Notes: generated by a model from the letters alone, not told the origin. A DNA stretch of 64,000 nt from Alphaproteobacteria bacterium (GCA_028282385.1 JANQIB010000098.1:4502-68501), one strand, 5' to 3'. Counted from the stretch's first letter, positions 7,563-27,906 are shown. A program made the numbers and translations.

Positions 7563-8444
7563 ATGAAATCTCATTCAACCCTTTTCCTGATCGGCCTGAT
7601 ATTGCTGGGCTGGAGCAGTTATTCGATGGCTGACACGCTCTCGAAATACCTGTCCGCAAGCTACACGATCCCGCAAATCCTGATGTCCACCAGCTTTCTT
7701 GGATCAATTTTTGCCGGAAGCTGGATTTTTCTCAAAAAAGGTTTCAGGGGTTTCATAACGCCAAAACTAAAATGGCATGTGATGAGGGGCTTCATCATTG
7801 TGATTATCTCTTATAGTATCGTTCACGCTTTTTCCCTTGCGCCCATGGCAGATGTATATGGCATTACATTTACATCTCCTTTTATCACCCTGATTCTGAT
7901 TTATTTTATTTTAAAGGAAAAGATTGGATTTCACAGATGGCTGGCCGTGTTTATAGGATTCACAGGCGCCTTCATTCTAGCGGGACCGCAATTTGAAACT
8001 TTGAGCATAGGCCTTATCTATGCCGCTATCTCATCTTTTTTTATAGCTGTCACAACAATCATCATCCGAAAAATCGGCAAGGAGGAATATCTCCCTTTAT
8101 ATCCGTTCTTTCCCCTCATATGCATTTTCTTGTTTAACGCACCGATGGCAGTACCTCACTTTATTATGCCTCAGGGCCTCGATATCCTTTTATTTTTAAT
8201 TCATGCCTGTGTCGTCATGGGCGGTCTTTTAATGGTGACCTATGCGATCGCCCATATTGAAGAAACAGCTATTCTCTCTCCGTTTATTTATATTCAGATC
8301 GTCTGGGGAACCGTATTCGGCATTTTCCTGTTCGGTGATATCCCAACTTGGACAACAATTTTGGGGCTCATCCTGATTATCGGTGCAGGACTCTATTCAA
8401 TCTGGCGCGAGCATGTTCACTACAAAGAAGATCACTCATTATAA
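7563..8444 (+). CDS. EamA/DMT family transporter
   Basis: 293 aa with about 10 predicted TM helices arranged as two EamA-like halves. Confidence 0.75.
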   Translation: MKSHSTLFLIGLILLGWSSYSMADTLSKYLSASYTIPQILMSTSFLGSIFAGSWIFLKKGFRGFITPKLKWHVMRGFIIVIISYSIVHAFSLAPMADVYGITFTSPFITLILIYFILKEKIGFHRWLAVFIGFTGAFILAGPQFETLSIGLIYAAISSFFIAVTTIIIRKIGKEEYLPLYPFFPLICIFLFNAPMAVPHFIMPQGLDILLFLIHACVVMGGLLMVTYAIAHIEETAILSPFIYIQIVWGTVFGIFLFGDIPTWTTILGLILIIGAGLYSIWREHVHYKEDHSL

Positions 8445-9007
8445 CCGGGCCGCGCCATTGTTACATTTGACATTTTTGTTCCATGTGGAACATGTTCTTC
8501 TTCAATCAAATAAGACTTTTTAAATAATTTTTTATCTTCACTACGCTTGTAAACATATATTCCAAGAACCGACAACCCGACTGCCCAGATTGCAGACAGG
8601 GAAGACATGCCCTGTAAAACCGAAGCTGCTTTATCTGTTTCAAAGATAACAACGTAAGCCAGTCCGAACATCTGCGCCGCCCAGGTAAAAGCCATAAGAT
8701 AGCCGAATGTTGGACGCATCCGCCGTACATAAGGATCGTTGGAGGCGACTTCAGCGCGCAAAGACTGATTAACCTCAGCAATACCCGCCTGACGTTCTTT
8801 CATCGCCAGCTCAGCCATCGCTTCCGCATGACGGTTCGCTTCGGCCATTTGCTCATTAGAAATCAACCCGCCCGCCAGCGCCGCATCAAGTTCGCCAAGC
8901 GCGCGGGCCGCACTTTGCGCCGCCGGATGATCAATTTTTCCAATGGAACGGCCGATAATATCAATAATAATCGGCAGGCCGACTTTTGCTAAAATAGATT
9001 CCAGCAT
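8432..9007 (-). CDS. 3-TM holin of the GTA-release type (DUF3154 / GTA_holin_3TM-like)
   Basis: 191 aa. N-terminal LPIIIDIIG, a helical middle, then AEVASNDPYVRRMRPTFGYLMAFTW followed by hydrophobic helices. It lies next to the endolysin. The stop overlaps the convergent eamA-like gene by 13 nt. Confidence 0.6.
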   Translation of the reverse strand: MLESILAKVGLPIIIDIIGRSIGKIDHPAAQSAARALGELDAALAGGLISNEQMAEANRHAEAMAELAMKERQAGIAEVNQSLRAEVASNDPYVRRMRPTFGYLMAFTWAAQMFGLAYVVIFETDKAASVLQGMSSLSAIWAVGLSVLGIYVYKRSEDKKLFKKSYLIEEEHVPHGTKMSNVTMARPGYNE

Positions 9008-9009
9008 GT

Positions 9010-9501
9010 TTATGCCTCCACTAACTTATAAAAAATATGCCGCCCAATAATTATGACCGGCTCTTCGCCTTCCGCCCAGTAAGGTGAAACATAATCCGCA
9101 TGATAATGCGTTGCCCCTTTTGTCCGGTCAGGTAGAACGTTATTGACGGCGCGCCGGGAAATTCGCTGGCAGGTTACAAATTTCTTATCCTGCTCCGTAA
9201 CCGCAATAAGCTTGCGGTAATTCGGATCAGATCTGTTCCAGCAGGAAAACTGATAAGGTTTCTGGCATACGCTAATAATGTCATTCCCCCACCAATATTT
9301 TCCACCGCGCGCCTGTGCAACGCGCACACGATTCAGCACGACACTGGCAACTGCTTCCATACCCTCCAGGCTTTCCGCGCGCGCCTCTCCCCAGATTGTC
9401 CGGGCAAGCACATCTACCGCAAGCTCATTATAAAAAGAGACAGACTCTACTTCATCCGCTTCTTCTTTCGTGAAGAGCGGTTTTAAAAACCGTATAACCA
9501 T
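9010..9501 (-). CDS. cell wall hydrolase, SleB/Hydrolase_2 family (endolysin)
   Basis: LARTIWGEARAESLEGMEAVASVVLNRV...CQKPYQFSCWN is the SleB-type signature. Confidence 0.8.
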   Translation of the reverse strand: MVIRFLKPLFTKEEADEVESVSFYNELAVDVLARTIWGEARAESLEGMEAVASVVLNRVRVAQARGGKYWWGNDIISVCQKPYQFSCWNRSDPNYRKLIAVTEQDKKFVTCQRISRRAVNNVLPDRTKGATHYHADYVSPYWAEGEEPVIIIGRHIFYKLVEA

Positions 9502-9511
9502 TTAAATTTTC

Positions 9512-9835
9512 CTATTCCTGTTTAGATCGTAGCGCTTCTGCTTTCAGCGCGGTTTGGTCAAGTTTTGTTTCAATTCGTAAAAGATGCGTTACAATCCGTT
9601 CTTCCAGATCCCTGACATCTGTCACGGATGCATAACTTTTTGCGACCTCCAGTTTAAACGCATAAAGCGCTTCGCGTAGCTGCGAACACCGCAGTTCAAG
9701 ATTATCATGCAGTATGCCGATTGATTTTCCAGACTCCTGACGCCCCTTCCAGATCAGCCAGAACAGCGCAGACATGGCCGGTAAATCAACCGCCGTAATC
9801 CACCAGATTAATCCGCTATCAAGTAGTGTATTCAT
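9512..9835 (-). CDS. N-terminally membrane-anchored coiled-coil protein (possible i-spanin or lysis accessory)
   Basis: 107 aa. A TM segment (LIWWITAVDLPAMSALFWLIW) is followed by heptad-like helices. It sits between terminase and endolysin. Confidence 0.35.
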   Translation of the reverse strand: MNTLLDSGLIWWITAVDLPAMSALFWLIWKGRQESGKSIGILHDNLELRCSQLREALYAFKLEVAKSYASVTDVRDLEERIVTHLLRIETKLDQTALKAEALRSKQE

Positions 9836-9849: not shown

Positions 9850-11340
9850 TTAGACTTCAAATTCCGTTTTAGCTGAGTGCATTTGTCCGCCGCCTTGCCA
9901 CTGAAGACGGTCCGTGTGATAACTTCGCTGAACACGCACAGATTGCTGGGACAGGGCACCAGCAACCGCATCAAGCCCATCATCCTTCTGCCCTTTAAGA
10001 CCAGGGCGCCAATCCTGCATTTCAGTTATAAAGGGCGTTTTGTAGACACGTTCATGTACATGCAGCGCGCGCGCAGCGAGCACCGCATCAAAACCTTCTA
10101 AAATACGCAAATCTTTTGCCCGTGATGAATTGACCTCTGTAACTGCGCACGGGACTTTTTGCTCTGCCATCTGCGTACGCAAAATGGCCGGCAAAAACTT
10201 TCCAATGCCGTTTGTTTCTACGGTAACCGAGGGAATAAAATGCTCCCGCGCAATTCGTGCCACCTGCATGGACTGACTTACCGCTTCTTCTTCAGCCAAA
10301 GCCGGATCGTGCCGTAAATAAACCAGATCATGTAAATAATACTGCCCGACTTCATCACAAAAAATCACAGCCAGAACGGACGCATCTCCTTTTGCGCTTC
10401 CAAAAGAAGGATCCCACCAGGCCGAACAAGACACGAGACGCCGCCCTTCCAAACGAAGCTGCAATGTCTGCTGACTTTCTGAGGATTGCAGCTGCGATCC
10501 GTAACGCCTGAGTAAATTCGGATCCAGGCGGCTTTCACTCACATTGAGCGGCTCCAACAACATTTGTGAGGCAAATTTTTGCGGACCTGTCTGCGTTTTT
10601 ATCTGCTTAATATCTTGAAGTGTAAATTTCTCAGGCCAGCTACTTTCTCCATCCTGATCAATCAGGGGGATAACAAGGCGCTTATAATCTTTTAAAAAAA
10701 TGTCTTCTATTCCAAGTTCCGGCTTTGGTGCATCAAGATAAATAGACTCCCATGTATGAGGTGTACCTAAATAAATCTGTACGCCGCCCGGAACAAGAAT
10801 ATAAGATGTCTCTTCAAGCCGTTCTCTAAGATCTTGCCGCTTCTCCGGAGTCTCGCATGTATTAGGAACCTCAACATCATCACAAATGATAATATCGGCC
10901 CGAAGTCCTGTAATATTGGAATGAATACCGCGCGCAATCACCGAAGGGTCACGCTGGACCTGCCCCCGCTTAACGGTCAGACGATCTGCCGCCCACTCCT
11001 CCTTTTTCTTCGGAATGAGAGGCTTCGTTAAAGGATGTGTCTGGATGATCTTGCGAATATTGCGGACCATCTTGGACGCCAGCGTCTGTTCGGCCGCTAA
11101 CACCAGGATACGCAAATCCGGATCCCTGTAGAGCAGCCATGCCGAGAACAGAGTGGTGAGCGACGACTTGCCGCTTCCGCGAAAGGCCTTCAGCAGTAGC
11201 CGCGTCTCTCCATGCGCCCAACACACTTCGAACCAGCGCGCGATTCTGAAGTGAATCAGGGGTGTTGAATAATTTTGTGTCCTGTTCCATAGCGCTAAGA
11301 ATACTCCAAAATCGACTTCTTTTGTAGTGTTTTTATCCAT
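9850..11340 (-). CDS. phage terminase large subunit
   Basis: 496 aa. Walker A is FRGSGKSS and Walker B is ADIIICDDVE, with a C-terminal RNaseH-like nuclease region (AWWDPSFGSAKGDASVLAV). Confidence 0.85.
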   Translation of the reverse strand: MDKNTTKEVDFGVFLALWNRTQNYSTPLIHFRIARWFEVCWAHGETRLLLKAFRGSGKSSLTTLFSAWLLYRDPDLRILVLAAEQTLASKMVRNIRKIIQTHPLTKPLIPKKKEEWAADRLTVKRGQVQRDPSVIARGIHSNITGLRADIIICDDVEVPNTCETPEKRQDLRERLEETSYILVPGGVQIYLGTPHTWESIYLDAPKPELGIEDIFLKDYKRLVIPLIDQDGESSWPEKFTLQDIKQIKTQTGPQKFASQMLLEPLNVSESRLDPNLLRRYGSQLQSSESQQTLQLRLEGRRLVSCSAWWDPSFGSAKGDASVLAVIFCDEVGQYYLHDLVYLRHDPALAEEEAVSQSMQVARIAREHFIPSVTVETNGIGKFLPAILRTQMAEQKVPCAVTEVNSSRAKDLRILEGFDAVLAARALHVHERVYKTPFITEMQDWRPGLKGQKDDGLDAVAGALSQQSVRVQRSYHTDRLQWQGGGQMHSAKTEFEV

Positions 11341-11348: not shown

Positions 11349-11657
11349 CTAATAATCTTTCTCTGTGCCAAGCGTTTTCATAGCGCCATCATATTCCTGC
11401 CTTGCTTCTGACAAACTTGCTTTGAGCAGCATATTATCTTCCATGCTTTCAAGGTTTTCATATTCAGCCAGCTTCAATAATAATTCGAGATGAGCTAAAG
11501 CTGCCCGGCAGGCTTTATGATGCTCACCAAACTCTTTAGACTCATTTGGAGCGATTTGACCTGAAAAATTCCGGTAAGAATTTACCGCTCTTGAAATTGC
11601 AACCGGTAAAAAGGTTGCAATTTTCCTGCGCTCCTGCGCATCAATCCGATCATCCAT
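11349..11657 (-). CDS. hypothetical protein in the small-terminase position
   Basis: 102-aa helical ORF immediately upstream of the large terminase, as T7 gene 18 is. Assigned by position only. Confidence 0.3.
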   Translation of the reverse strand: MDDRIDAQERRKIATFLPVAISRAVNSYRNFSGQIAPNESKEFGEHHKACRAALAHLELLLKLAEYENLESMEDNMLLKASLSEARQEYDGAMKTLGTEKDY

Positions 11658-11667: not shown

Positions 11668-13692
11668 TTAATTATGTTTTGAGACGATGTACCAGGCAGC
11701 CCCGTTAGACACGACTGTAATCGCGCTATACTGGCTGGATAATGGCTGAGCAGAATTATCCGGACCTGTTCCGCCCTGCTCCGTCACTGTTACAGCGTTG
11801 GCAGAACTATCTGTTTTCTTGATCGTGATCGTCCGGCCAATTGCTTCTGCTGCATTCGCTGGCGGAAGTTGTGCCGTGACAACGCCGCCAAAGGATGAAA
11901 TCAGATACGTATCGACTGCCATATCAATATTGTATGTTCCGGTTCCTTCAAAAAATCGGGTGTTGCCGGGTGCCCGGTTTGAAGAGATAACAAACCATTC
12001 CGCGCCATTTGAAATCATCTGGACAAAATCATTTTCTGCGCCCAGGTAATAGCTACGCCCATCCGGTCCGCTTCCACCTGTTTCACCAATCGTAATCACA
12101 TTCGCAGAACTATCGATTTTTTTAACCACCATCATCATGCCTTGCGCATCAGATGCGTTTGGCAAATTCACTGTAAGAGCGCCGCCAAAAGATGAAATCA
12201 AATGCACAGAATGAGATTCATCAAGATTTAACGTTCCGGAAGTGTCCGCGTATTCCGTATCATAGCGCTGCACTGTTGCGTTGATATCTGTGACAGTTGT
12301 CTGTTGAAAACGGTTCTTATACGGATAACCTGCATTATAGGCGGTATATTCCCCGCCGGAAAGATCCCAGATTGCCGATCCGTCCGATGCAGAAAGTAAA
12401 TTATAAATCGCTGTTTCAATCGATCCGCTTTCAAGTTTTACATTCGGCACACCGTTATTGGATTCTGCGTAAGGATTCACCAGCAATGTCTTATTTGATC
12501 CTGCGCCAATGATAAAGCACCCTTGCGCCGTCCCTTTGACATTGGCCTCACAATCAATAAAAGCATTATTGAATGAGCCATGCTCAACATAAAACCCGGC
12601 ACCCGTGATATCTGCGCCCAGAGAATAAACCCGGCAGGCATGAAACTTGTTCGCATTGGGTGTATCTCCAGCCCCGCTTTTAGCCAGGTGAAATCCATGT
12701 GTATTCGGCTGCACCACTAAAACACGGTTAAAGTTATTCCAGTAACAGGGCTTGGCCGTATCCGTATACCCGTCCAGCTTCACTCCAACATTGGCCTGCC
12801 AGATTGTGACATCGACAATAGAAGTCTGGACACAAGGACGATCTTTCCCGTACAGCAAAATCCCATTATCGCTGTTTTCTATTCTAAGGTTAGAGATAGA
12901 GGCATAATCCGCCGGCACTTCAATTGCGTTAAAGCTGTTATCCTGGCAGGAAAGAACAGAAGTTTGGCCGGCCCCGAACAAAGTTTGACGCTCCCCGACC
13001 GTGATTGTCCCGGTGATAAAATAACTACCAGGCGGAATATAGACGCTGTCATGCGCTGTTAAAGCCTGCTGGATCGCCAGCGTATCATCGGTTAGTCCGT
13101 CACCTTTTGCACCAAAATCTTTGACTGACACGAAATCAGAAAATTTATCGCTTGAGGTTCGCGTGACCGCACCCGTACCGGAGGCTGTATAATCCGGCGA
13201 TGCCATCGATCCTTCCAGAGACACTGCAACCGGGTCACCATCACCATCAAATCCCAGCGCTTTATTCGCGCGTTGCGTGCGATCTGGCAGCACCGTTTCT
13301 CCCGGCGTTTCATAATCGCTATAGCGCAGCATCGGTGAAAGATCCCGATCTACCTGCTGAAGACCTGCTGTCAGATAGTCCAGTTCCGTATTTATAGCCG
13401 CGGCAGAGAAACCTCCACCTTCAAGAAAGTCTGTTAGCCGCTCAAACGGCAGTCGGCGCTCAAGCGTAAGAACGATACCGCTTGATGGCGCAATATCAAA
13501 AGTGACAGTTCCGCCAGATGTTTCTCCAACATCAGAAATATCGTAACCACTTGTCTGCAATGCGCCATCAAAATAAATTTTTAAATCTTCACTGGCAAAA
13601 ATTGAAAAAGGGTAAGTAAAAACGGTTTGTGAACCATTGGCAACGTAGCGCACAAGCGGTTCTACCGCCGGCACCTTAACATGCTCAGTCAT
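11668..13692 (-). CDS. tail fiber/tailspike with a pectate-lyase-like beta-helix and a duplicated C-terminal module
   Basis: 674 aa. The N-terminus (RYVANGSQTVFTYPFSIF..DLKIYFDG) is typical of phage fibers. VKDFGAKGDGLTDDTLAIQQAL is the Pectate_lyase_3 motif. Two C-terminal repeats of about 80 aa follow. Confidence 0.8.
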   Translation of the reverse strand: MTEHVKVPAVEPLVRYVANGSQTVFTYPFSIFASEDLKIYFDGALQTSGYDISDVGETSGGTVTFDIAPSSGIVLTLERRLPFERLTDFLEGGGFSAAAINTELDYLTAGLQQVDRDLSPMLRYSDYETPGETVLPDRTQRANKALGFDGDGDPVAVSLEGSMASPDYTASGTGAVTRTSSDKFSDFVSVKDFGAKGDGLTDDTLAIQQALTAHDSVYIPPGSYFITGTITVGERQTLFGAGQTSVLSCQDNSFNAIEVPADYASISNLRIENSDNGILLYGKDRPCVQTSIVDVTIWQANVGVKLDGYTDTAKPCYWNNFNRVLVVQPNTHGFHLAKSGAGDTPNANKFHACRVYSLGADITGAGFYVEHGSFNNAFIDCEANVKGTAQGCFIIGAGSNKTLLVNPYAESNNGVPNVKLESGSIETAIYNLLSASDGSAIWDLSGGEYTAYNAGYPYKNRFQQTTVTDINATVQRYDTEYADTSGTLNLDESHSVHLISSFGGALTVNLPNASDAQGMMMVVKKIDSSANVITIGETGGSGPDGRSYYLGAENDFVQMISNGAEWFVISSNRAPGNTRFFEGTGTYNIDMAVDTYLISSFGGVVTAQLPPANAAEAIGRTITIKKTDSSANAVTVTEQGGTGPDNSAQPLSSQYSAITVVSNGAAWYIVSKHN
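11671..12216 (-). repeat. intragenic tandem duplication (two modules of about 80 aa) at the tailspike C-terminus
   Basis: HLISSFGGALTVNLPNASDAQGMMMVVKKIDSSANVITIGETGGSGPDG...NGAEWFVISSN compared with YLISSFGGVVTAQLPPANAAEAIGRTITIKKTDSSANAVTVTEQGGTGPDN...NGAAWYIVSKHN. Confidence 0.85.
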
Positions 13693-13715: not shown

Positions 13716-14255
13716 TTATAACAGGCTAATAATGGAATTCGCGTTTCCTAAAAGCCCTTGCGCAAAGGAATTTGCATTTGAAACATTGCTCAGTTTTTGA
13801 CGCTCTTTTAGTTGTGTTTGCTGTAAAACATTCAGACGTTTACGCTGGGCCAGGTCAGTATCCAGGGCGTTGAGACGCAAGTTATCAAGCGCTTCACGCT
13901 CCTGCCTCTCCTCTTCTGATTCTTCAAACAAACCAAGCAAAACCGCCTGGGCTGAACCACCCGCATTTGTATCAATACCGCTTGCTCCAAATTTTGCGCG
14001 CTGACGTGCTGTTGCCCGCTTTAATGCATCACGACGTTCTTTTTCCGCCGATTCTGATTCAAGCTTGATTTTTTCACGTTCAAGCGCTGCGTTTTCTTTA
14101 GCTACACGCAACTCCGCCTGTTGTTTTTGTTGAAGCTCTTTAAGCGCAAGATCTTGCGCCTCACTCTGATCATTATACCCACTCACCGTATCAACAAGTC
14201 CTGACACAATGCTAAGCCCCTGTATCACCGGGGCGATACCACTCAAACCGGCCAT
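13716..14255 (-). CDS. coiled-coil virion protein candidate (internal/ejection protein position)
   Basis: 179 aa. A Gly/hydrophobic N-terminus is followed by a long charged coiled coil. It sits between tubular B and the tailspike. Confidence 0.35.
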   Translation of the reverse strand: MAGLSGIAPVIQGLSIVSGLVDTVSGYNDQSEAQDLALKELQQKQQAELRVAKENAALEREKIKLESESAEKERRDALKRATARQRAKFGASGIDTNAGGSAQAVLLGLFEESEEERQEREALDNLRLNALDTDLAQRKRLNVLQQTQLKERQKLSNVSNANSFAQGLLGNANSIISLL

Positions 14256-16195: not shown

Positions 16196-16222
16196 TAAAA
16201 AAACCGCCCTCAAAGGGGCGGC
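16196..16222 (-). terminator. rho-independent terminator after 16247..16654
   Basis: On the minus strand: ccgcccc-tttg-agggcgg followed by TTTTTTAT. Confidence 0.75.
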
Positions 16223-16246
16223 TTAACAAAAATAATTTTTTTATAC

Positions 16247-20313: not shown

Positions 20314-20536
20314 TTTCCTCTCTAATCATCCGTCCCGTGGCATCGAAGATTGGTTTTTCTTTTGGAAGAGGCGGCGTGTCTTCGCTTTCCTCAAACGCGA
20401 AAGTGCCGTTTGAAGTAAAGACGGAGTTGCTTTCACTGCGCTCAACCCTGCCCGTTTCGGCAGGACTATTGGCATCAGCTTGTTGTTTTGCCTTTAACGT
20501 TTCAAGCGCCCCAGCACCAGATGCCCCGGTCTTGTT
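20279..20536 (-). pseudogene. orphan fragment of the 669-aa gene (central region through PPLPKEKPIFDATGRMIR), without a start codon
   Basis: Hand translation gives NKTGASGAGALETLKAKQQADANSPAETGRVERSESNSVFTSNGTFAFEESEDTPPLPKEKPIFDATGRMIREETKPSESRQIPG*. It is preceded by an in-frame TAA and has no ATG. Confidence 0.8.
20322..20512. repeat. direct repeat copy A (191 bp, 8 mismatches versus copy B)
   Basis: Aligned by eye against 22160..22350. There are no indels and the offset is 1838 bp. Confidence 0.9.
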
Positions 20537-20566
20537 TTATACCTAATTATTACTTATTCTACATTT

Positions 20567-21007
20567 ATGTTCAGAATAATTTTTATTGCTCTTGTGTTTT
20601 TTTCTTCTGCTACGCAAGCTGCAGAAGATTTCTGGGACAAACCGCCACACCCTAACGGGTGGTATGGTTATGATGAAACACTCCCTGATCTGCTGAACAT
20701 CAAAGGCTTAACCTACCATGAGGCAAGGCCCATTATCATTGGTGCCGGCTGGGAACCATTGCAAACTCTTCAGGAGGGCACACATGATTACGAACAAGGT
20801 ATAACCCTGTCCGGAGATGGCCCAAAGTTTTGGAACAAAAGTTATTATGAACTGCAAACATGCACTGGATCAGGTATGGCATACTGTGCTTTTCTTTTCC
20901 AAAACAAAAATGGCGACCGGCTTCGTATCGTAACTAAATATGAAGAGCATGAAGAATATTCATCTTTTGCTAAAGTCGCAGGCTACAGATTTATGCCCCA
21001 AGACTAA
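20567..21007 (+). CDS. secreted hypothetical protein
   Basis: 146 aa with the signal peptide MFRIIFIALVFFSSATQAAE. The gene is AT-rich and on the opposite strand. Confidence 0.5.
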   Translation: MFRIIFIALVFFSSATQAAEDFWDKPPHPNGWYGYDETLPDLLNIKGLTYHEARPIIIGAGWEPLQTLQEGTHDYEQGITLSGDGPKFWNKSYYELQTCTGSGMAYCAFLFQNKNGDRLRIVTKYEEHEEYSSFAKVAGYRFMPQD

Positions 21008-21204
21008 TTTTTCTCCAGAAAATCCTTTAAAGTTTTGAAATCAGTCAGCGCTTTATTGTTTAAAACGCCATCATAACGACTTTTATTTGAAGCATCTGGT
21101 GGAAGTGATGCCCATTCACTGGCTAATTCTTCTATCAATTTTTTCGTGCTGATTTTACCGGATTTATATTTATCAAACCCTCTGTATTCCAAAAGCCTAT
21201 ACAC
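21004..21204 (-). CDS. small ORF resembling the C-terminal part of a lambda-R-type (GH104) lytic transglycosylase; probably a gene remnant
   Basis: LASEWASLPPDASNKSRYDG..NKALTDFKTLKDFLE compared with lambda R CSNIWASLPGAGYGQFEHKADSLIAKFKEAGG. The N-terminal catalytic part is absent. Confidence 0.3.
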   Translation of the reverse strand: MYRLLEYRGFDKYKSGKISTKKLIEELASEWASLPPDASNKSRYDGVLNNKALTDFKTLKDFLEKN

Positions 21205-21252
21205 TTCATATCTTTGATAAAAAAGACAGCCTAAAAATCAGCGGTACACTTT

Positions 21253-21453
21253 CTAGTAAGCTAAAAACAATCCCACAACTATTGCTAAAACCATAAGGCT
21301 CAGAATACATCCGGTAAAGGCTCCTAGAAAAACACCTCGCCAAACAGGTTCCTGTTTCCTTGCAAAAGAAACACAACCGACTAACGCCCCTACAACCATC
21401 AAGAAGAAGAGAAAGAAAGCCGTTAACATTTCAATATCAAAAGAGCCATCCAT
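21253..21453 (-). CDS. two-TM small membrane protein directly downstream of the 669-aa gene (immunity-like candidate)
   Basis: 66 aa with two hydrophobic helices (FFLFFLMVVGALVGCVSF and GAFTGCILSLMVLAIVVGLFLAY). The gap after the upstream stop is 12 nt. Confidence 0.45.
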   Translation of the reverse strand: MDGSFDIEMLTAFFLFFLMVVGALVGCVSFARKQEPVWRGVFLGAFTGCILSLMVLAIVVGLFLAY

Positions 21454-21465
21454 ATTCTGAAACCC

Positions 21466-23475
21466 TTATTTGTTTTCTTCAGCATCCTCCCATGTTAGTC
21501 TTGGATTTACAAGCTCGCCTCCTTTGATCTGGACAGTACCTGTCACTTTTTGTTGCCATTGAGAGTTTATATCAAAACTTTTTGCGCGCCCTTCTTTTTC
21601 AAGAATGGTGGCCCCTCCTCCTCCACTTTGCAAAGGGTCAAAATTGTATTTATCTGTCCATTGATGAGTGACCGTACCATCAATCAAAATAGTATTTCCT
21701 TTTCTTTTTACTTTAAAGTCACCTCCAGACTTAACAGAACTTGTTCCTGTTGCCAAAGCTTCATCCAAATCCCCCTTCAAAAGATGACTTCTGGATAGAT
21801 CTGCATTACGAATCATCGTTTTAATTGGAAAATTTCCAACTTTATAATCCCAATTATCTTTCACTTCCATTACTTCATCCTCTTTCATATTTAACAATTT
21901 AGAGCCTATACCTTTCTTGTCTGTGAAAGATTTTGTGAATCTATCTCGGTTAACTCTTTCTCCATTACGCACAAAAAGCTTTTCACGAACCTGATCTCGA
22001 CTAAGCGCCTTATCTTCTCCTGATCCGTCTAAAAAATGCTCCAGATTATCTGCCGCTTCATTTAAACCTTTTTTATGTCCTTGATCTACATATTCTCTAT
22101 AAACATTTTCAATTGTGTCCAAATATTTTTCTTTATCGTAGCCTCCAAGCTCCTCCTTCCTAATCATCCTTCCCGTAGCATCGAAGATTGGTTTTTCCTT
22201 TGGAAGAGGCGGCGTGTCTTCGCTTTTCTCAAACGCGAAAGTGCTGTTTGACGTGAAGACGGAGTTGCTTTCACTGCGCTCAACCCTGCCCGTTTCGGCA
22301 AGACTATTGGCATCAGCTTGTTGTTTTGCCTTTAACGTTTCAAGCGCCCCGGACGGTCCGCCCGTTTCACCGCCGCCGTCAAACAGGCCAGACGCCGCAC
22401 TGCCCAAACTCCCGGCCAGCCCCTGCGCCGCCTGTGCCCCCGATGCAACGGCAGGCAGGATTTCATTGATTTTGGTCAGCACATCACCGTCGCTCTCCAG
22501 AGCGTCTTTCGTATTAAAGAAAGCCTGCGTGCCGCTTAAGGCCTGGGATGCAATCCCGGCAATCGGCCCGCCAACCGCGCTCAATCCCATCGAAACAACA
22601 GGCGCAAAGGCGTTAATCTTATCCGCTGTTGAACCTTCACCTTTAACGGCATCGATAACACCTTTAACAAAAGACGCAGCTTGAGCAAAAGCTTGCTGTG
22701 TTTTTTCCTCGCCTTGCAGGCGCATAACATTTTTTATAGCTTCAATACCCTGCTCCGTCTCACCGCCCGGGTGAACCAGTCCATCCTCTTTCAGACCCAG
22801 TTGACGTTGAATATTCTTAATAGCATCGCTCGTTTCCCGGTCAAGAAAGCCTGTCGGGTCACTGAGTTTATCTTTTGGCAAAAGTCCAAACTCTCCCAGC
22901 CTGCCCTGAAGGCCGATCACATCACGCTTGCCATTTTCAAGGTTATTTCCAACAGGACCTAAAAGTATGGGTTCCCTGACATTTATCAGGATATCGTCAT
23001 CTTCTTCAAAACCATTTTCCGGCTCACGTGGGAGATAACCGTTTTCTAAAATACGATCATACCAACCAGTAATACCTTCATCCAAATCATCATCTTGTTT
23101 TTCCATGGTGCGCAACGGTGGTGGTTTATCCGTATCAAGCATAATTGAATGATGTGGCTCATCGAATTGTGTAGATTCGTCTGCCTCAAGTGTCTGCATT
23201 GTCTCCCCATCTGGCTTGATGATCCCGTCAACTTTCAAGCCCTTATCTTTTTGATATTGTTTGATACCATCGAACAGTGCTTCGTCCGTATAGGGCGTGA
23301 TGCCGTAATCGGGGAGATCGTAATAACCGCGCGAGCGTAAAGCGTCTTTAATTTTCAAAACATCTCTACCGCGCGCCGCGCTATTGGAAGAAATAATATT
23401 ACTTATTCTTAACATTGAAAAAAACCTCTTAAAAAAATCCCCCGCGCAGGGAATGCGCGAGGGGAAGTTGCTCAT
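21466..23475 (-). CDS. modular protein: two peptidoglycan-binding modules, a Gly/Ala-rich region, a PPLPKEKPIF junction and a ~230-aa C-terminal domain of unknown function
   Basis: 669-aa ORF. An AAGAGG Shine-Dalgarno favours the internal ATG at 23415 (649 aa). The PG_binding_1-like segments are GRDVLKIKDALRSRGYYDLPDYGI..ALFDGIKQYQKDKGLKVDGIIKPDGET and PVGNNLENGKRDVIGLQGRLGEFG...SDAIKNIQRQLGLKEDGLVHPGGETE. Confidence 0.65.
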   Translation of the reverse strand: MSNFPSRIPCAGDFFKRFFSMLRISNIISSNSAARGRDVLKIKDALRSRGYYDLPDYGITPYTDEALFDGIKQYQKDKGLKVDGIIKPDGETMQTLEADESTQFDEPHHSIMLDTDKPPPLRTMEKQDDDLDEGITGWYDRILENGYLPREPENGFEEDDDILINVREPILLGPVGNNLENGKRDVIGLQGRLGEFGLLPKDKLSDPTGFLDRETSDAIKNIQRQLGLKEDGLVHPGGETEQGIEAIKNVMRLQGEEKTQQAFAQAASFVKGVIDAVKGEGSTADKINAFAPVVSMGLSAVGGPIAGIASQALSGTQAFFNTKDALESDGDVLTKINEILPAVASGAQAAQGLAGSLGSAASGLFDGGGETGGPSGALETLKAKQQADANSLAETGRVERSESNSVFTSNSTFAFEKSEDTPPLPKEKPIFDATGRMIRKEELGGYDKEKYLDTIENVYREYVDQGHKKGLNEAADNLEHFLDGSGEDKALSRDQVREKLFVRNGERVNRDRFTKSFTDKKGIGSKLLNMKEDEVMEVKDNWDYKVGNFPIKTMIRNADLSRSHLLKGDLDEALATGTSSVKSGGDFKVKRKGNTILIDGTVTHQWTDKYNFDPLQSGGGGATILEKEGRAKSFDINSQWQQKVTGTVQIKGGELVNPRLTWEDAEENK
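22160..22350. repeat. direct repeat copy B (inside the 669-aa gene, codons ~375-439)
   Basis: See copy A at 20322..20512. Confidence 0.9.
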
Positions 23476-23480
23476 GAAAA

Positions 23481-24116
23481 TTAACTATAGAGTTTCTGGA
23501 AGCCTTCTGTGACCTTGGCAATGAAAGACGGATCTTTATCTCTCCAGTAACGCGGATCGCGCATCATCGATTGCAAGTCGAGCTCGGCGCCGTCTGGGCC
23601 ACTTTCGCCTTTAGAAGTCTCTAGACCAGGCTCCTCACCCTTCATCATATTATGAAGTGCGAGTATGCCCTCAAAGGAGCTGGCCAACGTATCGAGGACA
23701 TCCTCAGGCAGTTGTTTTTGACCAAAGGCTAAAAGCTGCCGTGACATTTCAGCCCATTTTTCGGGCCCACCAAAATGGTTGACAAGTTTTTCAATTTCCC
23801 GGTCAGCTTCGTAATCGGAAGCCATTTGAACAATCATCGGCACCATTTTTTCTGCTGCCAAATCGTAGATAAACTGCACTTGATCTTGGGTAAATCCTTT
23901 CTGATGAAGCCGTTCATTCAACTCCTCATCAGCATCAAACAGACCGTGCTTACAATCCACACAATATTCTTTGGCGCTTTTGGGAGGCCGGGGCTGACGT
24001 GAAAATCTCTGTTCAAGTTCGTTATAAGATTTTACAAGGTTATCAAGATTTACATTACCTGTTTCCGGATCTTTAAACTTTTCCGGAACAGAAGTTTCTA
24101 AAAGTGTTTCAGTCAT
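23481..24116 (-). CDS. capsid assembly scaffolding protein
   Basis: 211 aa. VPEKFKDPETGNVNLDNLVKSYNELE is the typical podovirus scaffold N-terminus. The protein is acidic and helical and lies downstream of the portal gene. Confidence 0.65.
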   Translation of the reverse strand: MTETLLETSVPEKFKDPETGNVNLDNLVKSYNELEQRFSRQPRPPKSAKEYCVDCKHGLFDADEELNERLHQKGFTQDQVQFIYDLAAEKMVPMIVQMASDYEADREIEKLVNHFGGPEKWAEMSRQLLAFGQKQLPEDVLDTLASSFEGILALHNMMKGEEPGLETSKGESGPDGAELDLQSMMRDPRYWRDKDPSFIAKVTEGFQKLYS

Positions 24117-24146: not shown

Positions 24147-24428
24147 TTATGAATTCCGGCCACGGTCAATCATGCGCATGATGGTAGCAACCAAGGTACG
24201 CTGCCCTTCGGAAAAACGAATTTGTTCATCCGGCGTTGAGCCGCCCTGAGCGCGCTGAAATGTTATCACCTGGAGCCAGGCCAGTGCTTTTTTGCCATCT
24301 TCCGTAGAAAAGGTTCGGGTCAAAATCCGTTCGATTTCTTTTTGCTCAAGGCGTGACACATGAGCCGTATAGGTAAGCCCCTTTACGGCTTCTGATAAAT
24401 CTGATCTTCGCTTATGAAATAGTCTCAT
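24147..24428 (-). CDS. small conserved phage protein following the portal gene
   Basis: 93 aa. The start overlaps the portal stop by 17 nt. It has a FSTEDGKKALAWL...EGQRTLVATIMRMI pattern. Confidence 0.4.
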   Translation of the reverse strand: MRLFHKRRSDLSEAVKGLTYTAHVSRLEQKEIERILTRTFSTEDGKKALAWLQVITFQRAQGGSTPDEQIRFSEGQRTLVATIMRMIDRGRNS

Positions 24429-25944
24429 TTTGCACCTCCTGTGTTGGTATAATTTCGGATAGAGGAATTTCTTTTTGAATTAAATCACTTGGTACACCCA
24501 GCGCCTCTCCAAGAAATTGGGCCGCCCTTGGCATATTGACGCTCAGAGCTGCTTGAGGCCCCATAGCAATCACTGATTCAATCCATGTGAGAGTATTTTG
24601 AACGGATCGTTGCCCTTGAGCACGAGCAAGCGGCGAACGATAATCCAGAACAACATAACGGCCATCAAGCGCAATGTCAGGAATTTCACCGCGCCTTTTC
24701 AGAATATTGAAAGCTCTTTTCACAAGCGGCGTTAAAAGCTCTGATTGTAAGCGGCCATAAGTCGCTCCCAAGATCAGCGCCATTTCGGCTGAACGCTCAA
24801 GCACTTCAGTTGCCGTCATACGCCGGTCGTTCATTTGGCCTAACTTATCAGCCAATAAAGCATGGCGAATCCGGCTACGCAGATCATTCAGAACAAGTTC
24901 GGATACATCAAAACGCGCCGGCATTTCCAAAGGCTTCAACCCTTGTGAACCCACGGCTTTGGGAATAATAGCTCCCGGAACCAGTTCAATATTTGCTGGA
25001 TTCAAAACCCCGTCATCATCAGCCTGCCAAATTCCTGTTACAGAAATTGAAGCATTTTTAAGAATAAGTTCAACAACCTTATTGGCTGTCTTGATATCTG
25101 GTAAAGCTTTCATCACTGGAGAACGTCCGTAGATCTCTCCCGGCGATTTCATCCAGCGAAAAGAAATTGCCGGATTATCACCAAATCGGCCTTGTGCTAA
25201 AAGCGCATTCTGGCCCCCCTCAAAAAGAAGCGCAGTATAATTATATACGCCTTCTTCTGGCAGAATAAATTCTAGAACCTTAAAGCGTGATTGCGTATCT
25301 TTTTCACCACTACCTATTATTGACGGCGAAATAACGGCAAAAGGATAGCGTGATTTTATTTGTGTTAGCGTGAGTTCGATTTCACGGAATATCGTATCAA
25401 GAAACCCATTTTCGCCTTCTTCTAAAACAGCATTTTGCAGTGGAACAGCCGAAAATTTAAAGGCAGATAAAGATCCTGGCTCCGCCTCTTCAAACATAAG
25501 TGTTGCGGTTCCGCCAACAACAAGATCCAGGAAACATTGGTGCAGCTCAACGCTAAAATTTGAATGATCAAAATGATCTTGAATAATCTTAGCACTCTCT
25601 TCCAGGACTGGCGCCAGCTTTTCAGCTTCCGCCGGAGACAGATCAGGTCCTGGCTTAAAACCAAACCATTGTGTCCAGGGAGGTGTTAAATTACCCAGTA
25701 AACTTGCTGCAAGCTGATCAACCGCATCCAGCGCCGTACCATCATAAAGTTTGTCTGTACGCTTTCCGCCTATAACAGATGACCCAATAAAATCACCGCG
25801 CTGGGGCAGAGCATAGTCGTAGCATTCCTGCCAGTGTGTTTTCCAAGTGTTATGGCGCTCTCGTGATTTATTATAACGTTCTATTAAATCACTATAATCT
25901 TTCAAATTGTCCTGGCGGTGTTGCTCTAAATTAACATTATTCAT
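24412..25944 (-). CDS. portal (head-to-tail connector, T7 gp8-like)
   Basis: 510 aa, positioned upstream of the scaffold gene. The N-terminal helical YNKSRERHNTWKTHWQECYDYALPQR pattern is typical of podovirus connectors. Confidence 0.7.
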   Translation of the reverse strand: MNNVNLEQHRQDNLKDYSDLIERYNKSRERHNTWKTHWQECYDYALPQRGDFIGSSVIGGKRTDKLYDGTALDAVDQLAASLLGNLTPPWTQWFGFKPGPDLSPAEAEKLAPVLEESAKIIQDHFDHSNFSVELHQCFLDLVVGGTATLMFEEAEPGSLSAFKFSAVPLQNAVLEEGENGFLDTIFREIELTLTQIKSRYPFAVISPSIIGSGEKDTQSRFKVLEFILPEEGVYNYTALLFEGGQNALLAQGRFGDNPAISFRWMKSPGEIYGRSPVMKALPDIKTANKVVELILKNASISVTGIWQADDDGVLNPANIELVPGAIIPKAVGSQGLKPLEMPARFDVSELVLNDLRSRIRHALLADKLGQMNDRRMTATEVLERSAEMALILGATYGRLQSELLTPLVKRAFNILKRRGEIPDIALDGRYVVLDYRSPLARAQGQRSVQNTLTWIESVIAMGPQAALSVNMPRAAQFLGEALGVPSDLIQKEIPLSEIIPTQEVQNETIS

Positions 25945-25948
25945 ATTT

Positions 25949-26224
25949 TTACTCTCCTAATAAACTTTTTCGTGATGGCGCCTCATCCGATAACCCAAGC
26001 ACCCCCCTAAACCCGCTTAAAATTGTTCCAATACGGCTACGGTCACGCCTTAAAAGATTCTGCGTTCGGTTTTCAGATTTTTGTTCATCAGTTAAAACTG
26101 TCGTATCTTCAGCTTCACTTGAAGTATTTGAAGATTCTACCGTTGTCTCTGTTGATGTATTTTGCGGCACATAAACTATTTGAGGCTGCGTAGGGGCCCG
26201 CGGGGTTATGCTTCTACTTCCCAT
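25949..26224 (-). CDS. small Ser/Thr-rich phage protein
   Basis: 91 aa. The C-terminal RRDRSRIGTILSGFRGVLG...KSLLGE resembles the RRGR.STILT motif of small podovirus virion proteins. Confidence 0.35.
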   Translation of the reverse strand: MGSRSITPRAPTQPQIVYVPQNTSTETTVESSNTSSEAEDTTVLTDEQKSENRTQNLLRRDRSRIGTILSGFRGVLGLSDEAPSRKSLLGE

Positions 26225-26235
26225 TTTTTTTCTCC

Positions 26236-26655
26236 TTATACTGTTTCGAATTGAAATGATTTCACCTGTTTAAGGTGTTTATAGAGCTGCCAAGGCGTAT
26301 AAATCAGGCGCTTATGAACGCCTATCAAACGTTTTACAGCCTCAACGCACGTAAAAATCATAAACGGCGCAGGCTTTTTTAGATCTCTGCAGATCGGTGT
26401 TGAAAGGACTGTTTGGCCTTGTTGCTCAAGCCAGCCCGGTAAATCAAAGTTGATCGGCACATGATGATGGATTGCCACTTCAGTCAGATGAGATAAAGGA
26501 TCTATACTCGCCCAACGCTTTCCATCATTCAGCAATACATAGCAATGGCGAAATCCGGGTTTTAAAATCTTAAGCCAGCCAATATCTGTCCGTCCGCTAA
26601 AGACAACCCAGGCCTTCTGGTTCAACAAAAACTTATCAGAATAATCATCACTCAT
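26236..26655 (-). CDS. hypothetical protein (second gene of the cluster)
   Basis: The ORF opens at 26712. The ATG at 26655 (MSDDYSDKF) overlaps the upstream stop (TATGAGTGA), which indicates translational coupling. Confidence 0.45.
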   Translation of the reverse strand: MSDDYSDKFLLNQKAWVVFSGRTDIGWLKILKPGFRHCYVLLNDGKRWASIDPLSHLTEVAIHHHVPINFDLPGWLEQQGQTVLSTPICRDLKKPAPFMIFTCVEAVKRLIGVHKRLIYTPWQLYKHLKQVKSFQFETV

Positions 26656-27136
26656 AACAAGCTCCATAAATATGTGATGAATTCTGAGCCTGATCGTAAA
26701 TAACCGCACCATGAATCCAATATTTGTTAGGATTAGGAGCTGTTAGTTTTTTAAAACGCACGATTTTTTTTTGAATAAGCATTGGCTCCAGCCGTTCGAA
26801 TGCTTCTTCCCAGAGCTTATGTGCCCTGACCTCTTTGCTTCGATTAGGATCAGGCGCCATCTGCCGCCGGCCATAATGGCGAAGAACCAGGAGGTGATCC
26901 ATGCTCAACCGCCTGGATCTATAAAGCCGGTTAAGGATATTCAAAATATCACCGGGCTCACATGGCCGGGGAGTAGCACTCAGGCCACTTACAAACCTGG
27001 CTCCATCGACTCGCGCCTGCTGCGCTGTTATGAACCAAAACCATGCCTCTAACGCATTTTCAAATGGCACAGATTCCTGGTTCACGCATGATTTTGGGAT
27101 ATATTTGCTCTTATCACTCATTTCTACATATTCCAA
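26648..27136 (-). CDS. hypothetical protein (first gene of the cluster)
   Basis: 162-aa ORF next to the divergent control region. I could not assign a family. Confidence 0.45.
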   Translation of the reverse strand: MEYVEMSDKSKYIPKSCVNQESVPFENALEAWFWFITAQQARVDGARFVSGLSATPRPCEPGDILNILNRLYRSRRLSMDHLLVLRHYGRRQMAPDPNRSKEVRAHKLWEEAFERLEPMLIQKKIVRFKKLTAPNPNKYWIHGAVIYDQAQNSSHIYGACYE

Positions 27137-27143
27137 TTTTTAG

Positions 27144-27174
27144 CAAAAGCAGGATTTATGTTCTGCTTTTGTTC
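27144..27174. promoter_or_regulatory. candidate operator: GTTC-N7-GTTC (alphaproteobacterial SOS-box form) overlapping a 9-bp inverted repeat
   Basis: GTTC at 27160-27163, tgctttt, then GTTC at 27171-27174. The inverted repeat is CAAAAGCAG (27144-27152) and CTGCTTTTG (27163-27171). The site lies 24-38 nt upstream of the first cluster gene and about 85 nt upstream of the divergent repressor. Confidence 0.5.
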
Positions 27175-27258
27175 TATTTATGGGGCAACTTCACGCCCAT
27201 GTCAAGGAATTTTTTCCTAATGCTGTAAGAGACGTAGGATGATATACCTACAGACATT

Positions 27259-27906
27259 ATGCTAACACACGAAAATATCTGGACTGCAATTGACCGTTTA
27301 GCGGCAAGCTTTGGGTATTCTGCCTCCGGTCTTGCAAAACAGGCAGGACTTGACCCCACCTCTTTTAACAAAAGTAAACGAATAAGCCCTGAAGGCAAAC
27401 CCAGATGGCCTTCTACAGAAAGTATATCGCGTATTCTAACTGCCACAGGCGCAACGATGAATGATTTCATAGCACTCATCGATTCTGACGCCAGTACTCA
27501 TTCAAATAAAGCGGAACAAACCCTTCCGCTTATTCATTTTACACAGACCAAACAAAAAGAAGTTTTTGATAAAAACGGAAACCCAACCGGAGATTTATGG
27601 GACCATGTACAATTCCCGGATATGGAGATGAATAAGACTAATATTTTTGCCATTGAAGTAAGTGGTAATTCACTGATGCCGCTATACCGGAACGGAGATA
27701 TTCTGATCGTTTCTCCAAACGCCCCTATCCGTCGCGGTGACCGTATTGTGATAAGAAACGCAAAAGGAGTTCTCTCTGTTCAGGAGGTGCTTAAAAAGCA
27801 AGCCCGGAAACTTGATCTAAAATCTGTTTGCGCAAAGAAAAAAACCATATCATACACATCAAAAGATATTGACTGGACCGCACGCATTCTCTGGGTTAGT
27901 CAATAA
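27259..27906 (+). CDS. HTH plus S24 (LexA/CI-like) peptidase-domain repressor
   Basis: 215 aa. The N-terminus is IWTAIDRLAASFGYSASGLAKQAGLDPTSFNKSKR (HTH). The C-terminus is IFAIEVSGNSLMPLYRNGDILIVSP...GDRIVIR....VQEVLKK (S24 Ser/Lys pattern). Confidence 0.8.
   Translation: MLTHENIWTAIDRLAASFGYSASGLAKQAGLDPTSFNKSKRISPEGKPRWPSTESISRILTATGATMNDFIALIDSDASTHSNKAEQTLPLIHFTQTKQKEVFDKNGNPTGDLWDHVQFPDMEMNKTNIFAIEVSGNSLMPLYRNGDILIVSPNAPIRRGDRIVIRNAKGVLSVQEVLKKQARKLDLKSVCAKKKTISYTSKDIDWTARILWVSQ

Follow-up and report, generated by a model that had tools for sequence, protein, structure and literature searches.

The stretch of DNA analysed here, referred to as the window, comprises 64,000 nt of Alphaproteobacteria bacterium GCA_028282385.1 (JANQIB010000098.1:4502-68501). 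At positions 8432-27906, between eamA and pyrE, it holds a head, tail, packaging and lysis module of the T7 supergroup, together with a divergent CI/LexA-like repressor. Our analysis indicates that a complete particle gene set has been kept intact by selection at this one site, most likely as a particle owned by the host, such as a gene transfer agent (GTA), and not as a dead prophage. Genes were assigned by profile matches to PHROG, Pfam and NCBIfam, using bit scores or E-values for each open reading frame (ORF). Relatives were sought by scanning one genome per GTDB species; 511 of these encode a relative of the capsid protein, and the best 80 of the 511 were examined. Locus counts given for single genes refer to those loci whose contig spans the position of that gene. 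The minus-strand ORFs of the cluster run without interruption from 27136 down to 8432, the stop codon of the holin gene overlaps the convergent eamA by 13 nt, and pyrE is the next gene, 20 nt downstream of the repressor. Both junctions had been described in the original prediction, a model's reading of the sequence alone, and both are real; the PHROG and Pfam matches likewise recover every large ORF that it named, with the coordinates and identities that it gave.

The head genes, all on the minus strand, include the portal, a head-tail connector of the T7 gp8 type (24412..25944; phrog_332, 4.9e-109; PF12236), a Bbp19-like small protein (24147..24428; PF25181) and the scaffold, a T7 gp9-type capsid assembly protein (23481..24116; PF05396) present in 69/69 loci. 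The major capsid protein (18765..19607; phrog_3437, 3.8e-74; PF19821) has the HK97 fold, and an exact-sequence look-up of the version with a GTG start returned no match; it is followed by o79, a conserved small head-associated protein of 79 aa (18495..18734; phrog_18004; 72/73 loci). On the same strand, the tail is represented by tail tubular protein A, a gp11-like adaptor (17196..17765; phrog_394, 4.4e-46; 68/68 loci), tail tubular protein B, a gp12-like nozzle (14278..16176; phrog_376, 3.4e-148), and a gp14-like coiled-coil internal virion protein (13716..14255; 47/47 loci), the sole ejection-type protein kept in the cluster. The earlier proposal of a coiled-coil internal protein stands as a candidate, since the match to T7 gp14 (PF24072) is weak, at 25.5 bits just under the cut-off of 27. 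The tailspike (11668..13692, minus strand; phrog_1640; PF12708) combines a T7 gp17-like N-terminal adaptor with a pectate-lyase-type beta-helix; its phage homologs match residues 15-223 only, that is, the adaptor, and its full-length mean pairwise identity is 68% among 48 genomes. Conservation of a whole spike is atypical of phage receptor-binding proteins. The tailspike is detected in 43/47 genomes, and in four genomes (L009, L033, L048 and L067) that have the cluster, the interval from the gp14-like gene to the terminase contains no detectable tailspike.

The packaging and lysis genes complete the minus-strand series. A 102-aa ORF (11349..11657; phrog_31793, a family without annotated function) occupies the position of T7 gp18, the small terminase. 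Its predicted position was correct, and it is a candidate small terminase by position; the ORF is poorly conserved (mean identity 33%) and has no match in the PDB. The large terminase (9850..11340; phrog_38, 3.6e-87; PF22530) is of the T7 type; its nearest relatives are T7-like, and it is at most 31% identical to any phage terminase. Its Walker A (FRGSGKS), Walker B (IICDDVE) and nuclease (WWDPSFG and DDGLDA) motifs are kept, most residues in at least 95% of 38 genomes. Next come o107 (9512..9835; phrog_29007), also found in Azospirillum, whose 107 aa combine a coiled coil with a hydrophobic N-terminus and which is a possible spanin or lysis accessory protein; the endolysin, a SleB-type cell-wall hydrolase (9010..9501; PF07486; phrog_938); and the holin (8432..9007; phrog_3427), with three hydrophobic, transmembrane-like segments by hydropathy. 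The holin matches PF11351 (GTA_holin_3TM, 36.6 bits), as expected from the proposed resemblance to the three-segment family tied to RcGTA.

Three further conserved genes on the minus strand precede the portal. The first gene of the operon, o162 (26648..27121), encodes a helical protein of 157 aa with a homolog in 63/63 loci and a family of 733 proteins, in which no precomputed Pfam domain is recorded among the 120 homologs listed. The window protein has no match in PHROG and no relatives among phage families, and neither PDB profile searches nor Foldseek searches of its AF2 model (predicted local distance difference test score, pLDDT, 77) against PDB and BFVD gave a significant match. A Q21-antiterminator-like fold was considered and rejected (TM score 0.35, not significant). 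It is followed by o158 (26236..26655; 139 aa, conserved in 63/63 loci, with no match in PHROG or PDB profile searches) and by o91, a conserved small protein of 91 aa (25949..26224; 57/63 loci).

Within 8432-27906, no ORF matched an integrase, DNA or RNA polymerase, primase, helicase or other replication family in PHROG or Pfam, a tRNA scan of the cluster found none, no att-like direct repeats flank it, and neither the cluster nor any other part of the window encodes a single-subunit RNA polymerase or a DNA replication module, all in agreement with the gene content first proposed. Megablast of the whole cluster DNA against a phage collection also gave no match. Integrase, att site and replication initiator, by which satellites of the phage-inducible chromosomal island (PICI), capsid-forming PICI (cf-PICI) or P4-like kinds are recognised, were not found. 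A tailocin consists of a tail only, whereas this cluster has conserved genes for capsid, portal, scaffold and terminase. To the left the cluster is flanked by eamA, nhaA and icd, and to the right by pyrE (NF001729, 302 bits), nadK (NF003406), purC, an ATPase zeta inhibitor gene, bolA, grx, rodA, pbp2 and mreDCB. The 221-aa phosphoribosyltransferase-like gene beside the repressor had also been considered as ComF, which would have been a link to competence; this was rejected, NCBIfam identifying it as a genuine pyrE.

The site of the cluster is fixed among related genomes. GCA_028289285 and a Micavibrio sp. carry the same cluster in the same order (mreCD-pbp2-rodA / grx-bolA-zeta / purC / nadK / pyrE / S24 repressor / cluster), and the same locus with a constant core order is found in about 60 species-level Micavibrionales-like genomes that reach the flank. 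Capsid identity is 74-95% in the best 80 of the 511 species-representative genomes; these 80 are nearly all Micavibrio, Micavibrionaceae or unnamed alphaproteobacterial metagenome-assembled genomes (MAGs), with three closed chromosomes among them; for the portal, more than 100 alphaproteobacterial homologs at 67-84% identity were found, several on megabase MAG contigs. In the cultured predator Micavibrio aeruginosavorus ARL-13, the cluster corresponds to GMV_1830-1849, with icd/nhaA on one side and S24/pyrE/nadK/purC on the other (Additional file 4 of PMC3189940); the text of the ARL-13 genome paper (PMC3189940) does not mention it. The search for the cluster at the same locus in relatives, which the original prediction had proposed, thus finds it in close and distant ones, and no early phage genes adjoin the syntenic clusters. 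One MAG, OFTM66, contains two diverged copies of the cluster (L058 and L077), each with its own purC flank, for which a bin mixing two species, not a duplication, is the likeliest explanation.

The distribution extends beyond Micavibrionales. IMG/VR contains about 246 relatives, many of them predicted proviruses of about 18 kb from isolate genomes, and the high-GC (about 70%) members examined are collinear with the window, running from an S24 repressor through o162, o158, portal, Bbp19-like protein, scaffold, a variable region, capsid and o79 to tubular A, tubular B, the gp14-position gene, spike, large terminase (TerL), o107 and endolysin. Exact-sequence matches place such collinear clusters in Azospirillum brasilense, A. 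argentinense, A. baldaniorum, A. rugosum, A. canadense, A. himalayense and A. halopraeferens, and also in Niveispirillum, Arboricoccus pini and an Acetobacteraceae MAG. In two A. brasilense strains the portal is truncated by insertion sequence (IS) transposases of DDE families (L167, 875-3419; L168, 513-2418), and other Azospirillum strains, e.g., L145, have a full portal of 505 aa. Large clusters of the RcGTA type have been reported absent from Micavibrio and Rhodospirillales (PMC5721377), and because of this reported absence the RcGTA-type and podoviral-type loci appear complementary in their distribution. We found no description of the present locus in the literature on Micavibrio, Azospirillum and Rhodospirillales. 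Azospirillum lipoferum and strain B510 reportedly release particles containing random host fragments of about 10 kb, which were ascribed without proof to HK97-type regions (PMC3899980); for the podoviral locus this report is a lead, not evidence.

The cluster shows purifying selection and co-divergence with its host. Against relative L002, the capsid is 95% and tubular B 92% identical, compared with 95% for purC, 85% for rodA and 75% for pbp2; against L003, capsid, portal and tailspike are 78%, 71% and 69% identical, and purC, rodA and pbp2 are 80%, 61% and 64%. The structural proteins are therefore as conserved as the flanking housekeeping proteins. Even in the closest pair, synonymous sites are saturated, with a proportion of synonymous differences (pS) of 0.6-0.8 and nonsynonymous distances (dN) of 0.02-0.30, so the ratios of nonsynonymous to synonymous divergence (dN/dS), 0.02-0.19 for every cluster gene with an estimable dS and also at most 0.19 for purC, rodA and eamA, are meaningful as upper bounds only; in six genes the synonymous sites are too saturated for a ratio. 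Across 34 genomes, distances for portal, capsid, tubular A and B and scaffold correlate with those for purC and rodA (Mantel r = 0.76, reached by 0/5000 permutations), with nearly equal mean p-distances of 0.31 (cluster) and 0.29 (host genes). GC content at third codon positions (GC3) is 0.425 in the cluster vs 0.411 in the host, and the codon usage of the core genes correlates with that of the host at r = 0.93, against a baseline of 0.91 between two halves of the host genes, in line with the housekeeping flanks and host-like composition noted at the outset.

These data bear directly on the null hypothesis that the locus is a recently decayed prophage remnant without function. Damage does occur in single lineages, namely the IS-interrupted portals of A. 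brasilense, the loss of the tailspike in four genomes and the degenerate repressor of the window (see below). However, dozens of species keep the large ORFs intact and at conserved length, dN/dS does not exceed 0.19 at saturated dS, codon usage is host-like and the regulatory DNA is conserved. We reject this null because the clusters share the same locus, intact ORFs, low dN/dS, host-like divergence and codon usage, and conserved terminase motifs, and we regard it as scarcely credible. The proposed checks for broken structural genes and for dN/dS, which lies far below 1, thus came out in favour of a domesticated, structural-only, repressor-controlled module over recent decay, as does the conservation of the locus itself.

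Among isolated phages, the closest relative is Pelagibacter phage EXVC031P Hodr (portal 37%, capsid 49% identity), followed by pelagiphages of the HTVC010P type. The T7-type assignment of the original prediction is thus correct at the level of the T7 supergroup, but the affinity is to the HTVC010P/Hodr kind of pelagiphage and not to Autographiviridae. The late gene order of Autographiviridae is kept in part (for portal, scaffold, capsid, tubular A and B, gp14-like gene, spike, gene in the position of the small terminase (TerS) and TerL); gp15 and gp16 are missing, and the capsid belongs to PF19821 and not to the T7 gp10 family. Hodr is collinear with the cluster for portal, Bbp19-like protein, scaffold, capsid, o79, the two tubular proteins and endolysin, but encodes ORFs of 783 and 1247 aa after the gp14-position gene that have no counterpart in the window. 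The IMG/VR contig L114 (IMGVR_UViG_3300022693_004339) has a capsid 74% identical to that of the window, its other proteins being only about 30% identical. Among its genes are those for internal virion proteins, two ORFs of 750 and 780 aa, a primase and a primase-helicase, and its terminase gene lies upstream of the portal. In general, the pelagiphage-type relatives differ in being viruses of 33-35 kb with two internal virion proteins of 750-1250 aa, a terminase upstream of the portal and a primase-helicase (the latter shown for L114 only, Hodr being unannotated), and the cluster differs from them in its different, T7-type terminase at the distal end. In the domesticated clusters, including those of Azospirillum, the gp14-like gene is followed by the tailspike, either directly or, in some genomes, after small accessory ORFs, and the large DNA-ejection proteins of the gp15/gp16 type have been lost.

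L114 and probably L115 (the latter judged without annotation) look like true phage contigs. Because their capsids are 68-74% identical to those of the domesticated clusters while their portal and tail genes reach only about 30%, an exchange of capsid genes between phages and the domesticated locus is suggested. Such exchange, the restriction of our view of this genome to 64 kb, and the fact that GTAs and some other elements have split loci are what one could cite for a helper-dependent element, either satellite-like (PICI-like) or a temperate phage with its early genes elsewhere in the genome. We consider this very improbable, since the cluster has no integrase, att site or replication initiator, its site is fixed and overlaps host genes, it diverges at host rates across saturated synonymous distances, and the ARL-13 genome paper reports only islands resembling integrative and conjugative elements (ICEs) as mobile elements, the cluster region not being among them. 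A 5-kb sequence from human faeces filed as 'Bacteriophage sp.' (MT838907.1) is closer to the window than any isolated phage (portal 57%, capsid 60% identity) and may in fact represent part of such a chromosomal cluster.

The constant core is interspersed with variable genes, and the gene list of the original prediction, though right in the ORFs that it named, had passed over a 669-aa peptidoglycan-binding protein, an opposite-strand PilZ gene and two low-GC insertions. The 669-aa protein (21466..23475, minus strand), an accessory present in only about 12 loci, has a lysozyme-like N-terminus and two PG_binding_1 domains. In the gene calls for L001 it starts at about 23415, and its C-terminal third lies inside a low-GC cassette. 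Low-GC DNA spans about 20500-22150 and 16247-17193. The first of these regions overlaps a variable cassette with a GC content of 0.37 (20316..21453). Immediately beyond the stop codon of PilZ, this cassette has an orphan duplicate of 197 nt of the 669-aa gene (20316-20512), repeated directly with 95% identity at 22154-22350 inside that gene. The low-GC DNA between the two repeats contains the C-terminal third of the 669-aa gene, two 66-aa ORFs (21004-21204 and 21253-21453, the latter with two transmembrane segments) and a plus-strand ORF of 146 aa (20567-21007). This arrangement looks like the scar of a C-terminal cassette replacement, comparable to those of polymorphic toxins or receptor-binding proteins. 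The second region is a two-gene insertion (16247..17193, minus strand, GC 0.38) between tubular A and B, with its own terminator (16201-16224), and encodes a PG_binding_1 protein of 180 aa and one of 135 aa for which a single hydrophobic, transmembrane-like segment is predicted; tubular A and B are adjacent in L002/L006 and L003, which lack the insertion, and several other genomes have unrelated insertions at this point. A further accessory ORF of 134 aa (17839..18243, minus strand) has no homolog in other loci and is followed by a terminator-like hairpin (17796-17815).

Across the loci, insertions recur at hot spots that follow o79, the gp14-like gene and the spike or lie in the gaps between scaffold and capsid, tubular A and tubular B, and the TerS-position gene and TerL, and their cargo includes GH108 and PG_binding_1 proteins, GNAT, OmpA-like proteins, RlpA and occasionally IS1595. 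The accessory genes have a GC3 of 0.373, below that of the core genes. Cargo-like genes of this kind, the polymorphic C-terminal cassette followed by a small ORF with two transmembrane segments, and the predatory lifestyle of Micavibrio would fit a particle that works without DNA, as a capsid-borne carrier of proteins or effectors or as a display of polysaccharide depolymerase, with the terminase kept only for head maturation. We think this improbable: the same core is present in non-predatory Azospirillum, the ATPase and nuclease motifs of the terminase are kept across 38 genomes, and we know of no podovirus capsid that works without DNA.

The cluster is preceded by a conserved regulatory module. 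As predicted, the divergent gene at 27259..27906 (plus strand; PF00717; phrog_4) encodes a CI/LexA-like repressor with an N-terminal helix-turn-helix domain and an S24 peptidase domain, and a homolog is present in 61/61 loci reaching from pyrE to portal. The 137 bp that separate it from o162 (27122..27258, read on the minus strand) form a regulatory region, in which a palindrome, TAGGAAAAAATTCCT, overlaps a -35 element (TTGACA) and is followed, after a 17-nt spacer, by a -10 element (CATAAAT) and an SOS-type box, GAACAAAAGCAGAAC (27160-27174). Both promoter and operator are conserved. A GAAC-N7-GAAC box lies just past the -10 element in 49/58 related loci, compared with a background of 0.055 per kb, and upstream of it these loci have a conserved -35 element and a TAGGAA...TTCCTA palindrome. 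The box of the related loci is nearly always GAACATAAAGnGAAC, and the operator of the window is altered to GAACAAAAGCAGAAC. Azospirillum, at 70% GC, keeps the same AT-rich promoter layout, with the box GAACATGTGTTC in A. brasilense and GAACATAAGnnGAAC in other Azospirillum loci. The LexA box of Caulobacter, GTTCN7GTTC, is equal to GAAC-N7-GAAC (Table 1 of PMC9578287). The window was also searched, upstream of recN among other places, for another LexA box that would point to use of the motif by host LexA; the sole other exact match lies at the end of nadK, at chance level. The repressor itself has diverged in this genome. Most members of the family have AQAG, GDSM and AK(E/Q)L at positions where the window copy has TQTK, GNSL and VQEV, meaning that the Ala-Gly cleavage site is lost (AQAG to TQTK) and the catalytic Lys is replaced by Gln, both of which nearly all relatives keep; it is 60% identical to its closest relative, compared with 76-95% for the neighbouring genes, and is probably non-cleavable in this genome.

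A second regulatory component is embedded among the structural genes. On the plus strand, opposite to the operon, a PilZ-domain protein (19927..20313; PF07238) is present in 75/75 loci, and its motifs for binding cyclic di-GMP (c-di-GMP), RxxxR and NxSxxG, are kept in 71 species, making it a candidate c-di-GMP receptor. In A. brasilense, the slot between scaffold and capsid contains a 794-aa HAMP-PAS-GGDEF-EAL protein and an opposite-strand PRC-barrel gene (L167, 6700-9580; L168, 3581-6461); with PilZ in Micavibrio-type clusters and GGDEF-EAL in A. brasilense, c-di-GMP components therefore occupy the same position of the cluster in two orders. RNA-seq data for the attack and attachment phases of ARL-13 give gene expression indices (GEI) of 0-0.2 for the structural genes, the scaffold gene GMV_1843 reaching up to 1.2, compared with (attack/attachment) 1.3/9.1 for PilZ, 1.5/2.2 for the repressor and 1/10.6 for an accessory RlpA gene. 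Because the structural-gene indices are near 0 while PilZ, repressor and RlpA are expressed, the particle genes of this cultured relative are tightly repressed, and regulators and cargo genes are active. A terminator scan placed strong terminator-like hairpins after the scaffold gene (23439-23463) and after each accessory insertion, so that read-through or internal promoters would be needed.

One of the closest known systems is RcGTA (Rhodogtaviriformidae, of Rhodobacterales, Rhizobiales, Caulobacterales and Sphingomonadales). Both have alphaproteobacterial hosts, a PF11351 holin and a structural, packaging and lysis locus of about 15-19 kb without replication or integration genes, inherited vertically under purifying selection; in the present cluster, a tie to host stress circuits and a probable need for host uptake functions would be further common traits. 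In contrast, the head-tail module of RcGTA is HK97-type, siphovirus-like and not homologous to the T7-supergroup module (PF12236, PF05396, PF22530). An RcGTA-type prohead protease, tail tube and tape measure are absent from the cluster by Pfam and PHROG, and only the holin family PF11351 is common to both. Unlike RcGTA, the podoviral cluster carries its own CI/LexA-like repressor and occurs in clades reported to lack RcGTA large clusters (PMC5721377).

The original prediction had held that, to its knowledge, no characterised GTA was a T7-like podovirus and that the module would hence be a new kind of particle. This is partly outdated by FpGTA of Faecalibacterium prausnitzii, a podovirus-like GTA-like element described in 2026 (PMC12946183), and the locus is best rated as an independent podoviral lineage in Alphaproteobacteria. 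FpGTA is compared here by its published description. As here, FpGTA consists of genes of the short-tailed-phage type, is near-ubiquitous in its clade and includes terminase, portal, scaffold, capsid and lysis genes, and its authors leave the choice between DNA transfer and a PBSX-like action undecided; it differs in its Gram-positive Firmicute host, in its two separate operons of 10.5 and 5.5 kb, and in that 40-nm particles with host fragments of about 8.5 kb have been demonstrated experimentally (PMC12946183).

The podoviral locus also has to be weighed against defective killer particles. The loss of gp15/gp16 fits either, by analogy with RcGTA, delivery of DNA only to the periplasm followed by uptake through the host, or a lack of injection as in PBSX. 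PBSX is a myovirus-like particle of a Gram-positive host that kills without injecting DNA, and it is not homologous to the cluster. PBSX of Bacillus subtilis is chromosomally fixed, SOS-inducible, controlled by a repressor, released by lysis and non-propagating (PMC12946183), traits that the cluster would share. A particle of this kind would be SOS-induced and released by lysis, with heads containing random DNA that is not injected, and would act on competitors, or on the envelopes of prey, through the depolymerase of the tailspike and the peptidoglycan-acting accessories. It would account for the absence of gp15/gp16-type ejection proteins in every locus, the repeated PG_binding_1, GH108, RlpA or OmpA-like accessory genes, the cassette-replacement scar in the 669-aa peptidoglycan-binding protein and the SOS-type appearance of the control region, and the same alternative has been raised for FpGTA (PMC12946183). 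On the other hand, the tailspike is unusually conserved (mean 68%) and is not diversifying as the receptor-binding proteins of bacteriocins usually do, terminase and portal are under strong purifying selection that would be needless if DNA were irrelevant, and the peptidoglycan-acting genes are accessory and not core. We therefore consider a PBSX-like killer unlikely.

Our preferred reading is that a T7-supergroup podovirus was domesticated long ago and that the resulting locus, passed on vertically, acts in a GTA-like manner, as a viriform; taken as a whole, we regard this statement as somewhat more probable than its negation. Its parts differ in strength. That the locus is domesticated and selectively maintained for particle production we hold with high confidence; that the particle packages DNA and is released by lysis is judged from the genes to be reasonably probable, with considerable room for doubt; and whether it is a bona fide GTA is close to an even question, with the balance tipping slightly to the negative. 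As a plausible mechanism, the locus would be kept off by the divergent S24 repressor and/or host LexA, acting on two elements on either side of a sigma-70 promoter, the palindrome and the GAAC-N7-GAAC box. In a fraction of the cells, the long operon would be derepressed by DNA damage, with c-di-GMP as a modulator via the embedded PilZ protein, and the procapsids would then be filled by the intact T7-type terminase with chromosomal DNA, which must be the packaging substrate because the locus has no replicon. Holin and endolysin would lyse the producer cell, and the released particles would bind a conserved surface polysaccharide through the beta-helix tailspike. With the gp14-like protein left alone as an outer-membrane component, DNA may reach the periplasm at most, and uptake would then depend on host machinery, by analogy with RcGTA.

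A wider version of this proposal would make the locus a second, independent and ancient family of alphaproteobacterial GTAs that fills the gap left by RcGTA in Micavibrionales, Azospirillaceae and other Rhodospirillales sensu lato. The family would be switched on by DNA damage and c-di-GMP signalling, would hand over DNA to the periplasm only, lacking gp15/gp16, and would perhaps be the source of the random-DNA particles of Azospirillum. We advance this combined proposal tentatively, as one somewhat less likely than not to hold.

Several points weigh against the GTA-like reading. In no organism have particles, packaged DNA or transfer been observed for this locus. No ORF of the cluster is identified as a small terminase, a T=7 head, with room for about 35-40 kb, could take up all 19 kb of the locus, contrary to the classical criterion for a GTA, and the loss of gp15/gp16 could equally mean that no DNA is delivered, as in PBSX. 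With regard to control, host LexA and the S24 protein are both candidates for binding the GAAC box; in A. brasilense the box reads GAAC-N4-GTTC rather than GAAC-N7-GAAC; and SOS induction may fail in the genome of the window because its repressor has lost the cleavage site and the catalytic Lys and its operator is altered. The host genes in the Mantel comparison adjoin the cluster, so that the correlation demonstrates co-inheritance of a neighbourhood and not congruence with the whole genome. Finally, maintenance is not universal, since four genomes have no tailspike and some A. brasilense strains have IS-disrupted portals.

If the locus is functional, most of the deep-branching Alphaproteobacteria thought to be without a GTA would have one of independent viral origin, and the domestication of phages for particle production would have occurred convergently within a single class. 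A. brasilense and M. aeruginosavorus ARL-13 would be tractable models in this respect, and the c-di-GMP components within the cluster, along with its conserved promoter and operator, constitute a directly testable regulatory circuit. A podovirus without an ejectosome would also be a natural experiment on how DNA crosses the envelope. For genome annotation, predictors of prophages and viruses class these loci as viruses, as seen from the approximately 246 IMG/VR relatives, thereby inflating provirus counts for these clades.

The remainder of the window is housekeeping in character and includes ligA, recN, ftsZ, pntAB and a type I secretion system. Between 39472 and 50103, genes for a FecR/FG-GAP protein of 1107 aa and a CHASE2-adenylate/guanylate cyclase occur together with a type I secretion set that consists of HlyD, an ABC exporter with a C39 peptidase and a TolC-like outer-membrane efflux protein (OEP); these are possibly a secreted-effector system of a predator with no relation to the particle locus.

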